Made by a program: the position numbers and the translations under genes. Of a stretch of 64,000 bases of DNA, positions 23,692-58,471 are shown piece by piece. The notes beneath the pieces were generated by a model. The model saw only the letters and a program-made list of their open reading frames with translations. It did not search any database and was not told the DNA's origin. The DNA comes from Pelagomonas calceolata (Eukaryota), in NCBI GenBank assembly GCA_918797485.1, contig CAKKNE010000003.1, positions 930,001 through 994,000 on the forward strand. The letters are read 5' to 3'. Position 1 is the first letter of the stretch. Each line of letters starts with the position of its first letter.

Positions 23692-25718
23692 CTACGTTAG
23701 TTCCGTGATGGGCTGGTGCCGCTGGAGCGCGTCCTGCAGAAAGGAGAACAGCTCCGCGGACACCGACGTCTTGTACGGCGTCGGGTTCAGCGGCCGGAGC
23801 ACGTCCTCGCGGACCTCGCCGAGCTGGCGCTGGCAGTAGGCCCGCAGCTCCCGTAAATTTTCCGACGCGCCGACGCGGCGCCCGCCCTCGAAGACGGGCG
23901 CGTGGAGCTCGAGGACGCGGCTCGGCGTCACGTACGCGCGCTTCGACGAGTCGAAGGGGTGGCGGCAGAGCACGCGCTCGCCGACTTCCGGAGCTGCGTG
24001 GGCCGCCGGCACGAGCAAGTCGAGGAGCATCTGGCCCCGCGCGCCGACGAGGCGGTAGCAGGCCTTAGCGCCGGGGATCGTCGTCTTGCCGGGCTCCTGG
24101 CTGAGCTTGAGGCATGGCTCGCCCGAGATCTCCACGAGCTTGTAGACGCAGCCCAAGGCGGGCTGCGCCTGGCACGTCACGAGGTGGGTGCCGATGCCGT
24201 ACGCGTCGACCTTCGCGCCCTGGTCCCGCAACGATAACAAGACGCGTTCGTTGATGTCGTTCGACGCGACCACATAGCACTTCCGCAGGCTTTCGGCTAA
24301 TGAGCCGCGGCCGGCGCCGTACGTCCCCGCGTCGAGGTCGTCGGCGGTCCGGTCAAAAAGTTGTCGAGCCTCCTTCGAGAGGTAGGCGAGGTCGCCCGAG
24401 TCTATTCTGACACCCTTGGCCTCGAAGCCCGCCTCCTGTGTGTTTTTTTGTGAGTTTTGCATCCGTGCGTTTATCTCTCGGGTGCTCGCGTCGGTTCGAT
24501 GGCGTGTCCCCGAGGTTCGTCGCGCGCAATTTCACGCCGAGTCCGCACCGCCAGGGCCAGTGCCACGGTCACGAAGTTCCTGAGACCGGTATCGAGCACG
24601 CTATACGTATCGACCAACGCGACAAACGTTGTGGGGTTCGCGAGCGCGTAGGACACGAAGGCCGCGAACTCGCCCTCGTGCAGAGCCGCGCCCTCCTCGT
24701 AGCCGAGCTCGCCGCGCCACTGGAGCGCCGCTTCCGCGATGTCGACGCCATTTAAGATACAGTCGGCCTGTGTGGACATCAAATTTTACGACGCGTTCGT
24801 GCTGAATCGTCGCGTCGTCCTCCACGCCATCGACGCGACGCCTGCTCGATGACGTGGTGGTCCTCGTTCCTCACCGCTCGACGGAGCCAGCGCGGCCACG
24901 TCATCGCCGAGAAATGACTTAGTGAAGAATTGTCGGGTGCACCCGTCGCACTGGTTGATTTCCACACAGCAATTGCGGGGAGGTCCTCGCGCGATCGGTG
25001 CGCCTGGACGTAGCTGTGGCCGTGCGTGCCCGAGACCGGGAGATCCCTAAAAATCTTGCCCGCGAGGACGTTGGAGGTCCCGTCGAAGCCGCCCACAAAT
25101 GCATATCTCGAGGCCTGCGCGCGCGTCGCGTCATGACGCCATCGCCGCGATTCCACTATGACACGGAAGCCGCACGGACACGCCGCCGTCCGGCCCCTGG
25201 GCCCGTCGTAAACCGAACTCCAGCAGTCTGCAGTCGGGCCCCGCGGCCAATCTCATTCTAGCAGCGTTCGTCGTCACCAAGGAAGCGAAGTTCACGAGAT
25301 TTAGTAGGGAAGTCTCGAGCAGCTGCGCAAGACCAATAGGCCCGTGCACGCGCAGCAAGGGGCACTTCGGGAAGACGACGGTGCCCTCGCGGACCGCGTG
25401 CACGGTCACGTCCGACGCATCTAACGCGCGGAGCCAGTCGAAGAAGCCGGGCTCCGCTCTCGGTAATAGTGTTCGGAGGTACGCGATATCAGTGTCTGTT
25501 ACTCTGAACGACTCTAGATAACGAATGCACTCGTCGAGGCCAGCAAAAACCGTGAACTCGCCCCCAAACGGGTTCTGCCGGAAGTAGAGCTCGAAGACAC
25601 CTTCCACTTCATGTCTCTTATGCCGCCAGTACGAATAGGCCATACTGATCTGGTAAAAGTCCGTCAGGAGCGGGCCGACCAGAGGGTTGGTCGGCTGGCT
25701 CGTTGTCATGGCTGCCAT
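23692..25718 (-). CDS. NAPRT: Nicotinate phosphoribosyltransferase; introns 25115-25175, 24768-24976 (GC-AG), 24436-24548
   Basis: [84 protein letters not shown]. Confidence 0.95.
24768..24969. mobile_element. Introner family 1, longest (202-bp) copy
   Basis: TIR CTGTGTGGACATCAA / TTGATTTCCACACAG; internal sequence colinear with the 21119 copy plus ~52 extra bp; splicing gives REDLP|ADCIL. Confidence 0.92.
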
Positions 25719-25916
25719 ATTTGGTTTCTTTGGTCGCTGTGGCTTTGCGCCGCCTGTGGCTCTCCGGTGGCTACTGGTGCCAGACGCTGAGCTACTGGTG
25801 CAGACGGCTGCGCGCTGTCAACGAGCACACGGCTTCACGATCATACAGTTGCGCGAGGACCAGTGGTGTCGACGGGAGCGGGCTGCAGCCGAGCTTTTTG
25901 CGTCTATTATGCTGCG

Positions 25917-27482: not shown

Positions 27483-28458
27483 CGTTGGAGGCGTTTCGAG
27501 TTCTCTCCTTATTCCGCTTTGAGGCACCTTTGATCGGGACCTGGACTACTACTAGGCAAGATGACGCTGCCAAGGCGTACCGTTTAACGACGCCGGGCGG
27601 TCGTCTCGACTGCGCCGGCGAATAGGGACGACGCTGGGCGGCGCCGCGTCGATGGTGCGCGGGGAGGGCCGCCGCTCATAGCCCGCACACCTCGGCAGCA
27701 TCGGCGCGCATCACGTGTCCGTACGGCGGACGACGTTGGAGTCGGCGGGCTCGGGTCGGCCGCTCGGCGGAATCGAAAGCAAAGCCAGGCTTCTCCGGGC
27801 GCTCGAAGCCAACAACCAAGCGCCACCTCTCCGCCTTGACCGTCCCCAGCCTCCCAGCACCTCGGCGTGGCCGCACAGGTACGATTCTGCCCGATTAAGA
27901 TCGAATTTTACTACTAATCTTACTTCTTTACATTATTTTTTGTAGGAAGCTGCGGCCGACTTTTTGTCCTGCCGAAAAAGCAACGTACCGCAGGCTACTC
28001 AAAGTGGCAGGCCCGTCGTGCTGCCCGAAAAGCAGCGTCAGGTGATCTGCCGTGTCTGGCTGCCCTGCTCTTTTGCTGCTCTGCTGCTGCTGAGCCTGGG
28101 CTGCAGGCTGCCCGTCGTCGTCGCGCGACGTTGCCTGCTCGATGGTGTGATGATGGAGCTGCACGGTGGCGTCGAAGACCGCAGCTGACTTTAGCGACGC
28201 GCAAGAGGCGACGTTGCGCGCGGGCCGTGTCTTGAGCGACGGCGCGAGAAGCGCAAGAGGGCGGACAAGGACGTGAGGCGCCTCGTGGCGTTGGATATCG
28301 ATGCTTGCCAGTTGGGTGCTCGTAGATAGCCGAGGCACGCTCGAACACTGTGCTCGTGCCGGTTTCGAGGCCACCGCGTACGCGACCCTGTCCCGTGCCC
28401 CCCAAAACCCCCTGTCGTTAGCAAATGGCGACGAGGCCCAAAAAAACAGCAAAAAAAA

Positions 28459-28612
28459 TTCCGAAGCGGGGACTCGAACCCCGGTCTAGTGCGTGAAGAG
28501 CCGAATTTTTTAAAATTCTGAGGCACCAATGCTAACAGCAGTAAAATCGGGTTTTCACGATTTTACACCTATTATGGACGGCAAGTAAGACTTTACCGTT
28601 CACCACATCGGA
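28459..28612 (-). tRNA. tRNA-Glu (probably CTC) with three non-canonical intervening hairpins
   Basis: Acceptor stem TCCGATG/CTTCGGA+A, T arm CGGGG-TTCGAGT-CCCCG, anticodon stem GGTGC/GCACT, D-arm halves GTG..TTAGCAT, and a T8 Pol III terminator immediately downstream. Confidence 0.85.
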
Positions 28613-28808
28613 ATTTTATCGATAGACATCGATGGGACGAGATCGGTGATTTGTTGCAGAAGTACACTCTAGAGGAAAAACCCGCTTTCGCGAATTGACC
28701 CAGCCGAAGTGACCCGCTGTCGGCCCATGACCTAACACCTCCACAAAAAAAGCGCAAAGCAGCATAATTTCAAAAACTAACCAGACCTGAACCCTCCACC
28801 GCATCCAA

Positions 28809-29453
28809 ATGGAGCCCTACTACCTCGACCGCCAGCCCATGCAAAGGCGCTCCCGCAGCCGCTCGCGCTCGCGCGAGCGCAGCGCGGCATCACCGCGCGG
28901 CGCCGCCCGCAGCCGCCACGAACAGCCGCCGCAGCCGCGCGGCCCGCGCATGCAGCACAATGAAAGAGAGACGGACCCGCGCCGCCTCTCCCAGCGGCGA
29001 AAAGAAATAGCCTACGGAAAAAACACGCTAGGCTACGAGCGCTACCTACGACTGGTGCCGAAAGAGAAGCGGCGCCACCCCCGCGACCACCCGCCGACGC
29101 CCGACCCGACGCGCAAGTACTCGAAGCGCCAATTTGACGGGATCGTCCGCGCGTGGCGCCGCAAGCTCCACGACTGGGACCCTCCGAAATCAGAGCAGGA
29201 CCTGGGCCCCGCCGTCGCGCCGATGATCCCCACGCTCGCCGCGACGCCCGCGCCGGCGCCGCCCGCCGCGCCCGCGCCCGCGCCCGCGCCGCCCAAACCC
29301 GTCGACGACGACTTCGGACCGGACGTGTTCGCCGTCGACGTCGCCGCGCCGTCGTCGGAACCGCCGGTCGCTGCGGCCGAGCCGGTGCCGGCGGCTGATA
29401 CAACGCGGACCGCGCCGGCCCACGACGACGTGTCCGACGACGACCTACTCTAG
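28809..29453 (+). CDS. SLBP: Histone RNA stem-loop binding protein
   Basis: ETDPRRLSQRRKEIAYGKNTLGYERY...VPK...HPPTPDP...SKRQFDGIVRAWRRKLHDWD. Confidence 0.93.
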   Translation: MEPYYLDRQPMQRRSRSRSRSRERSAASPRGAARSRHEQPPQPRGPRMQHNERETDPRRLSQRRKEIAYGKNTLGYERYLRLVPKEKRRHPRDHPPTPDPTRKYSKRQFDGIVRAWRRKLHDWDPPKSEQDLGPAVAPMIPTLAATPAPAPPAAPAPAPAPPKPVDDDFGPDVFAVDVAAPSSEPPVAAAEPVPAADTTRTAPAHDDVSDDDLL

Positions 29454-29728
29454 CTTGTGTTGTTAAGTGAGCCGAAATAGGACGCGTCCACAGGTCCCAC
29501 GGCATTCCGCATTTCCTGGCTGAGCGAAGCCCGGCGAGAGGCTCTCTGCCAGGGCTGGGCTGGGGCTGGCAGGCAGGCATCCAGGCTGGGGAGCGGTGAG
29601 CGGAGCCTGTAACAATCTCTGCGGCATTTCTGGACGTCGCAGCAGTCGTCACGACGACACGTCACAGCGCCGTGAGCAGACTGCTGCGTCGCGGGCTTTG
29701 GACAAGGTCATTTGAGCCCAATCCACTC

Positions 29729-30667
29729 ATGAAGCACACAACCCTAGCAAGCACCCACCACGCGCTCGAACACGCCGGCGCTTTTTTGACGCCCGGGGAC
29801 TACCCTTCACTGAAGGCGGTCGGTCGAACCTTCGTGCAGAAGGCGGGCGTGACGGTCGGCTTGCTGCGGAGCATCCCGAAATATAACAAGAAGGGCAAGC
29901 GACGACTCGCGGCGTTGGAGCTGCAGGCGCGATTGCTCGGCAGCGCCGCGGAGCCCTACCTGTTGCTCGCTCTACGCGAGGACTCGTCGCAAGGCGTCCG
30001 AGGAACGGCGGCGCGGTGGCTCGCTCGCATCGCGCTGCACAGCGAAGAAGACGTGCGGACGCGGCTCTACGGCGTCCTCGTGGAGCGCTACGACGCCGAG
30101 GCACGTATGATGGACGTGCGCGCGGCCCTGACGGAAAGCTTATCTCACGACGCGCTCGAGCTCCAACGGCTATTCCCGGGTCGCGCCCTCACAACCGCAG
30201 CACTGGAGTCATCTGCCAAGCGTGCCCGCGATGCCCAGCTTGCGCCAGCGCGCCGCGCGCGGAGCGAGGCGGCGCGCGCTGCGGCTGATGCCCGGAGCGA
30301 GGCGGCGCGCGCTGCGGCTGATGCCGAACTGCAGGAGAAACAGGCGCGAGACAAGCGGGGCCAATTATTAGACTTCCTCTATTGCTCGATGGAGCGACAT
30401 CGACAGCGGCGTCGGGACCCCGGCACCACGCTGGACGATCTCTACGAGGCTACCTTATGTATCGAGGGTTCGTTACTAGAGACACGGCGCGTTTTCGGTT
30501 GTTCGCACCGAATCACAATGAAGATTGAGGACGAATTGCGAGACGCGCGAGCGGCGTTCCGCGCCGGAGCGAGGCGGCGCGCGCTGCGGCTTATGCCGGC
30601 GCCGGCGGCTGATACAACGCGGACCGCGCCGGCCGACGACGACGTGTCCGACGACGACCTGCTCTAG
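29729..30667 (+). CDS. Chimeric hypothetical protein: TPR-like family tail plus a duplicated SLBP C-terminus
   Basis: RDPGTTLDDLYEA..LETRRVFGCSH..IEDELRDARAA resembles the 43260 ORF; the last ~23 codons copy the SLBP end. Confidence 0.55.
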   Translation: MKHTTLASTHHALEHAGAFLTPGDYPSLKAVGRTFVQKAGVTVGLLRSIPKYNKKGKRRLAALELQARLLGSAAEPYLLLALREDSSQGVRGTAARWLARIALHSEEDVRTRLYGVLVERYDAEARMMDVRAALTESLSHDALELQRLFPGRALTTAALESSAKRARDAQLAPARRARSEAARAAADARSEAARAAADAELQEKQARDKRGQLLDFLYCSMERHRQRRRDPGTTLDDLYEATLCIEGSLLETRRVFGCSHRITMKIEDELRDARAAFRAGARRRALRLMPAPAADTTRTAPADDDVSDDDLL

Positions 30668-58162: not shown

Positions 58163-58471
58163 GGCGTTGCGCTCGACGACTCACACTGAGTGTGGTCACT
58201 CTCAGAGTTGGAGCGGTTATGCGCTATCGCTGCGAACTTTCGGGCTGCCGCAGCGAGCGAGACGGCTGTCGAAGTCAGACGAGCAGCCGAAACCGAGCGC
58301 TGGCGCAACACGCGCGTATTGCGAGATGCAAATGTGGTTCCGCCCGAGCTCGTGATGCTAGTACCTTTACATTCAAGGAATCGAACCGGATCTCAGGGCT
58401 GAAGTGAGCTATTGAGCTCCCGCCCTCCGAGCTAGGCCATACAAGAGCTAGGGTGATGTATAAACACATAC

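Follow-up and report, generated by a model that had tools for sequence, protein, structure and literature searches.

The locus at 28612–28459 on the minus strand of the analysed window (the whole stretch of 64,000 nt) raises the question of whether a tRNA gene interrupted by three hairpins can yield a working molecule and, if so, where and by what rule its precursor would be cut. With a probability of about 0.85, we consider it to be a nuclear tRNA-Glu(CUC) gene with three non-canonical introns, likely matured by cutting that follows the bulge–helix–bulge (BHB) shape rather than the 37/38 ruler.

The gene spans 154 nt and consists of four exons (12, 6, 17, and 38 nt) separated by three AT-rich hairpin introns, all given here as minus-strand features. 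Exon 1 (28601..28612) covers tRNA positions 1–12, that is, the acceptor 5′ strand, the start of the D-stem, and the 5′ part of the A box. Intron 1 (28572..28600, 29 nt) lies in the D-stem at 12/13 and has a 7-bp inner stem, 3-nt bulges, and a central helix with four out of four pairs, tRNA positions 7–10 with 28577–28574. Exon 2 (28566..28571) is a 6-nt micro-exon (positions 13–18) containing A14, G15, and G18, and is followed at 18/19, between the invariant D-loop guanines, by intron 2 (28537..28565, 29 nt), which has a 7-bp inner stem, a central helix with three pairs out of four, and the weakest motif of the three. Exon 3 (28520..28536, 17 nt, positions 19–34) ends with the wobble base C34. 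Intron 3 (28497..28519, 23 nt) at 34/35 is thus inside the anticodon; its inner stem has 6 bp, and three out of four central pairs form between tRNA positions 29–32 and 28502–28499. Exon 4 (28459..28496, 38 nt, positions 35–73) carries the rest of the anticodon arm, the variable loop, the intact T arm with the B box, the acceptor 3′ strand, and the discriminator A73; it is uninterrupted from 35 to 73, and hence the canonical single 37/38 intron is absent. A T8 run (28451..28458), which we take to be the likely RNA polymerase III (Pol III) terminator, directly follows the gene. A permuted or split tRNA gene is ruled out by the order of the exons, all four of which lie colinear in a stretch of 154 nt.

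A sequence-only reading had located the gene with its strand and length, its three self-complementary inserts, and the T8 run behind it where we find them, apart from the borders of two inserts. It had put the first insert after position 12, with a helix and 3-nt bulges, at ~28600–28575, and the second in the D-loop at ~28566–28536; both sites and the start of the first insert hold, whereas the end of the first insert moves to 28572 and the borders of the second to 28565–28537. Its limits for the 23-nt third insert were exact.

The joined exons are called tRNA-Glu(ctc) by ARAGORN and retain all invariant bases checked (T8, A14, G15:C48, G18, G19, A21, U33, A37, and the T loop). The cloverleaf has 20 out of 21 stem pairs, the exception being 6:67, a U–U mismatch where an intronless homolog has U–A. 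The 171-nt region encompassing the unspliced gene folds at −52.1 kcal/mol (z −4.19), and none of 200 shuffles equals it.

Two lines of evidence place the junctions. The positions 12/13, 18/19, and 34/35 were derived from the bulge spacing and the tRNA consensus before any homolog was known, and excision against the homolog agrees with them. A scan of metagenome contigs with the 3′-exon motif yielded four loci, all of them uninterrupted tRNA-Glu(CUC) genes (RF00005, 54–60 bits; 59.7 for the L002 locus); as they are near-identical, we count them as one lineage, a marine eukaryote of 45–48% GC, marked as such by the GPI2 gene on the L002 contig. Among all possible removals of three segments of at least 8 nt that reach the homolog length, 210 leave at most nine mismatches, and exactly one has the minimum, six out of 72, with introns of 29, 29, and 23 nt. 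The exons so joined are identical to the L002 gene at 66 of the 72 positions, differing at positions 9, 22, 25, 26, 67, and 69 (standard numbering). The next-best excisions, seven sets obtained by slides of 1–2 nt, cost one extra mismatch each. Homology alone thus leaves a thin margin for the junctions, to which the geometry adds support.

The three introns share one register. The inner stem begins at the second intron base and stops 7 bases short of the 3′ end; the 4-nt intron strand of the central helix terminates 2 nt ahead of the 3′ cut, as does its partner exon strand 2 nt ahead of the 5′ cut. The BHB spacing proposed earlier is therefore seen at three junctions out of three, with intron 2 a weak BHB only, and as the outer helices comprise only one, three, and one pairs in introns 1, 2, and 3, respectively, these are relaxed BHB forms. 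When cuts are slid by up to ±4 nt at constant intron length, offset 0 alone gives a central helix of at least three pairs and an inner stem of at least 6 bp in all three introns. Among 81 cut pairs per intron, the homology-defined one ranks best for introns 1 and 3 and third for intron 2. Geometry of this kind is common in the GC-rich window, where roughly 2 sites occur in every 154 nt; for a given start/end pair its frequency is 5e-4, and all three of the homology-defined pairs show it. Shuffled introns score as well in 8, 26, and 53 cases of 200000 for introns 1, 2, and 3 (p from 4e-5 to 3e-4), in a test that scores the hairpin and the helix together and so does not separate a BHB from any hairpin; for the central helix taken separately, the shuffle p is 0.07, 0.25, and 0.07, respectively. 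The register common to three unrelated inserts is a stronger argument than the shuffle test.

The same register bears on the rival explanation that survives best, although we regard it as quite improbable, namely, that the locus is a pseudogene, a dead tRNA-Glu copy with three AT-rich hairpin insertions, the working gene being elsewhere. Such a reading fits the U6–U67 mismatch and the view, given in the available part of Yoshihisa (2014; PMC4090602), that eukaryotic tRNA genes with insertions in the D- and T-arms are mostly regarded as pseudogenes. It accounts poorly for three inserts that all pair to the upstream exon in the same asymmetric manner, for exons that differ from a distant homolog at six positions only with the invariant bases intact, and for inserts with no target duplication, the direct repeat being 0 nt at all three. 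We found no similarity among the three inserts, and the longest word that any of them shares with the rest of the window is 9–11 nt. A MITE or transposon footprint in a tRNA pseudogene was rejected, with neither target duplication nor repeated insert copies within the window.

In the contigs of one whole DNA run, possibly the source DNA itself, a single contig spans the gene, and no second piece matches it at 80% likeness (one out of 194781 records), which suggests, but does not prove, that the Glu(CUC) gene is single-copy and argues against the pseudogene; matches as short as 38 nt may have escaped this comparison, and with them an intact paralog. An uninterrupted Glu-CTC gene, which the sequence-only reading had proposed to look for, is found in the metagenome loci of the other lineage, and none was seen among these contigs. 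An intron-bearing ortholog with changes was not found: one contig set is identical over the gene, and another covers it partially with no changes listed there.

No spliced joint, as the pseudogene would have it, was found in four poly(A) runs made from a single sample (6–12% of reads per run), nor in one contig set presumed to be RNA, in which the gene is covered unspliced. Mature tRNA is poorly captured by poly(A) libraries, and hence the missing joints weigh little either way. Three of the four poly(A) runs contain one or two sense-strand fragments (orientation taken from the 5′ region of the neighbouring gene for the histone stem-loop binding protein, SLBP), whose ends computed from binned depth are 28506/28571, 28520/28585, and 28468/28613. 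Two of these six ends fall on exon borders, 28571 opening exon 2 and 28520 closing exon 3 (p about 0.005, computed post hoc); a read from which intron 1 or intron 3 had already been excised would cease to align at just these bases. These are single molecules and provide a weak hint. Both informative fragments retain intron 2.

The plus strand at 28250–28500 carries a transcript of its own, poly(A)-selected, with a depth of about 30–70 over 28250–28438 and a 3′ end near 28448, in the A-run whose complement is the likely tRNA terminator; most of the reads come from this transcript, and some of them continue antisense into the tRNA. No ATG-started open reading frame (ORF) of at least 90 aa accounts for this transcript at 28250–28500.

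Marginally less probable than the pseudogene is a real spliced gene in which intron 2, or introns 1 and 2, are cut elsewhere or removed by a BHB-free route, yielding a slightly different D-loop. The motif energies are −6.5, −1.0, and −1.9 kcal/mol for introns 1, 2, and 3, and the pair probabilities of the central helix (ViennaRNA) are 0.10–0.35 in intron 1, 0.72–0.97 in intron 3, and about 0 for intron 2 in all four modelled forms that retain it. This unpopulated helix and the third rank of the intron 2 cut speak for other cuts, as do the introns lacking a central helix (“no H”) reported for Cyanidioschyzon merolae in the available part of Soma et al. (2013; PMC3728597). Once intron 1 is gone, a wider cut register of intron 2 has −8.5 kcal/mol as compared to +1.5 for the required one; this wider register, adopted alone, would delete G18 and G19, and formation of the D-stem might mask it. 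By eye, a 26-nt intron 1 combined with a 33-nt intron 2 also yields a plausible D-loop of 8 nt, but then the 3′ cut of intron 1, again by eye, lacks the BHB spacing, and positions 10–21 no longer agree exactly with the homolog. Since C. merolae splices introns without a central helix, a weak one in intron 2 is tolerated in a known case. The D-loop junctions, previously called ambiguous, are settled as 18/19 by the intronless homolog and the BHB spacing.

By far the least probable is a cut of intron 3 one base upstream, at 33/34, giving tRNA-Glu(UUC), or both anticodons by alternative cutting: ARAGORN accepts the product as a valid tRNA-Glu(ttc) with only one more mismatch, but the motif falls to two out of four central pairs and a 2-bp inner stem, the homolog has CUC, and one of the computed fragment ends, 28520, coincides with the border expected for CUC. 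Of the two anticodons that the sequence-only reading had entertained, CTC with a relaxed BHB intron at 34/35 is thus the one picked by both the homolog and the spacing, and the 1-nt shift to TTC is very improbable.

For the tRNA-Glu(CUC) gene with BHB-type introns, maturation most likely proceeds as follows. As the A box is split twice by introns and there is no TATA in the 100 nt upstream (CAA is found at −85, −44, and −41), Pol III would use the intact B box to transcribe the 154-nt precursor up to T8. In each hairpin, the 4-nt helix between two 3-nt bulges would then be recognized and cut by the tRNA splicing endonuclease, just 3′ of the second bulge base in both strands. Intron 2, with the weakest motif, would probably be removed last, given the motif energies and the rule that introns are removed in the order of stability (the available part of Soma et al., 2013; PMC3728597); the two sense fragments agree with this order. 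We also considered that intron 2 is removed first, since its 3-bp outer helix exists only while intron 1 is present, and dropped this option because both informative fragments retain intron 2. The exons would be joined by an RtcB-type ligase, followed by CCA addition. As the CUC anticodon exists only after the removal of intron 3, splicing would be required for a GAG-reading tRNA.

To our knowledge, the pairing of a PF01974 domain with a SAP domain in one protein is unusual. A pelagophyte protein with a PF01974 catalytic domain and a SAP domain is given in the available part of a published genome annotation, possibly of another species (PMC9481584 supplement 4, row 5080), and the idea that its SAP domain is a substrate-recognition add-on is worth checking. 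This annotation names at least two PF01974 proteins, the SAP-bearing one included, at least one Sen54-N protein, and RtcB, in support of the proposed cutting and joining; among the 14,639 rows listed, no entry is named Sen15 or TFIIIC, although a missing name does not mean a missing gene.

Several features lie at the 5′ end of the gene. By eye, exon 1 together with the initial bases of intron 1 (28612–28595, minus strand) resembles an A box lacking a single base, and thus intron 1 might partly rebuild the A box that it interrupts. At 28618–28633, 6–21 nt upstream of the tRNA, a perfect 6-bp palindrome occurs twice with a 4-nt spacer. The contigs presumed to be RNA branch at 28621, where a loose end of 31 nt includes 12 letters that are absent from the window; this may be a chimera or a real fork.

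The suspicion that standard scans may miss such genes proved justified. ARAGORN reports zero tRNA genes in the whole window, and Rfam gives zero matches at the gathering score; an E-value scan of 2 kb with Rfam catches the T-arm hairpin alone and no tRNA, and ARAGORN with introns allowed and relaxed scoring miscalls the gene as tRNA-Lys. When the window was scanned for a T arm with a T run, the sole match was the tRNA-Glu locus, in a search that genes permuted or interrupted in the T arm would escape. A second candidate, 58377–58387 (minus strand), was rejected, as it has the exact T-loop consensus, but no T stem, no Rfam match, and a fold z of 0.32. The 3′-exon pattern has zero loci in the viral and zero in the prokaryote genomes searched, and all 13 viral matches to the 17-nt 5′ pattern were discarded as chance, having an exact run of 17–20 nt and no T arm.

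The host is indicated by the neighbouring gene. SLBP (PF15247) is encoded at 28791–29453 on the plus strand, head-to-head with the tRNA and about 200 nt apart, and the top-ranking named relative of this protein, which itself lies on a 5.39-Mb contig, comes from Chrysophaeum taylorii, a pelagophyte. Aureococcus, also a pelagophyte according to the available part of PMC7936722, is another of the 34 matches, which are mostly unnamed marine sequences. This one protein points to a pelagophyte host, in line with the stramenopile suggested earlier. Searches for the syntenic locus with SLBP as the query returned 88 and 12 candidate stretches, none of them confirmed. The last ~22 residues of SLBP recur nearly unchanged as the final residues of the next ORF (29600–30667, plus strand), which has no Pfam match, and this suggests a partial duplication.

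The closest known case is the multi-intron tRNA genes of Cyanidioschyzon, and by sequence criteria the pelagophyte gene would belong with these BHB-type genes. According to the available part of Soma et al. (2013; PMC3728597), C. merolae likewise has nuclear tRNA genes with three introns, D-stem and D-loop sites, relaxed BHB types (HBh′, hBH, no H), a split A box, and a T-run terminator. The pelagophyte annotation resembles it in naming, among the rows listed in the available part of PMC9481584 supplement 4, two catalytic subunits and Sen54, and no Sen15. The differences are the lineage (a red alga as opposed to a stramenopile), the absence of a 37/38 intron, the 6-nt exon, and the anticodon-splitting intron: the 42 C. 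merolae introns listed in the available part of PMC3728597 are at 37/38 and in the D-stem, D-loop, variable arm, and T arm, whereas the third pelagophyte intron is inside the anticodon. The same source describes TATA-like elements upstream of C. merolae genes, where the pelagophyte gene has no TATA within 100 nt, and splicing demonstrated by RT-PCR, where we infer it from the sequence.

Other systems share individual features. In Chondrus crispus, D-loop introns are also found, on account of which tRNAscan-SE called essential genes pseudogenes; the introns there are fixed at 20/21 or 58/59, with at most two per gene, as opposed to 12/13, 18/19, and 34/35 (PlantRNA 2.0, 10.1101/2021.12.21.473619). 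The nucleomorph of Guillardia theta, the remnant nucleus of a red-algal endosymbiont, has up to three introns at non-canonical sites including the anticodon stem-loop, so that 34/35 is not claimed as unprecedented; its introns are 3–24 nt long, many of them without a defined BHB (available parts of PMC4090602 and PMC3978253). Archaeal genes of Thermoproteales and Asgard have BHB-defined cuts at transplantable positions, at most three per gene, introns of about 22–23 nt, and D-arm inserts often missed by annotators (available parts of PMC4090602, PMC8450103, and 10.64898/2026.10.13.758758). Unlike them, the pelagophyte gene has eukaryotic-type exons and a Pol III T-run and lies on a eukaryotic chromosome; its introns have no mutual similarity, unlike the transposed introns of Thermoproteales described in the same sources.

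In titles and abstracts, we found no report of such genes in a stramenopile nucleus; supplements or databases may hold annotations. The available parts of PMC3728597, PMC13578239, PMC10485636, PMC4090602, and PMC3978253 give eukaryotic non-canonical tRNA introns for red algae and nucleomorphs only, PMC13578239 treating atypical introns as a trait of these groups and their origin as unresolved. PlantRNA 2.0 curated two heterokonts and reports no atypical introns for them in its main text (10.1101/2021.12.21.473619), and the word “tRNA” does not occur in the available main text of the pelagophyte genome paper (PMC9481584). PMC10485636, in its available part, leaves open whether non-canonical introns are spliced by the endonucleases of eukaryotes other than animals and fungi, and cautions that tRNAscan in its eukaryotic settings recognizes canonical introns only. 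A three-intron tRNA gene in a stramenopile host nucleus would extend the trait to a new supergroup, offer a substrate from an alga in culture on which cutting by structure alone could be tested, and help to judge between convergence and acquisition from the red-algal endosymbiont; for pelagophyte algae, the number of tRNAs may have been undercounted and codon analyses may be incomplete.

As a wider and tentative proposal, to which we give slightly less than even odds, much of the nuclear tRNA set of pelagophytes, which are abundant in the open ocean, would be concealed by multiple BHB introns that arose independently of those in red algae; the pelagophyte endonuclease would be structure-only and archaeal-like, cutting even inside the anticodon, and the anticodon that reads the preferred glutamate codon would thus be created by splicing. 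GAG outnumbers GAA by 29 to 11 in three Pfam-confirmed genes and by 496 to 225 in 22 long ORFs, some of which are surely spurious. The window also encodes a nicotinate phosphoribosyltransferase (PF17767, PF17956) with at least two exons at 23692–25817 on the minus strand.
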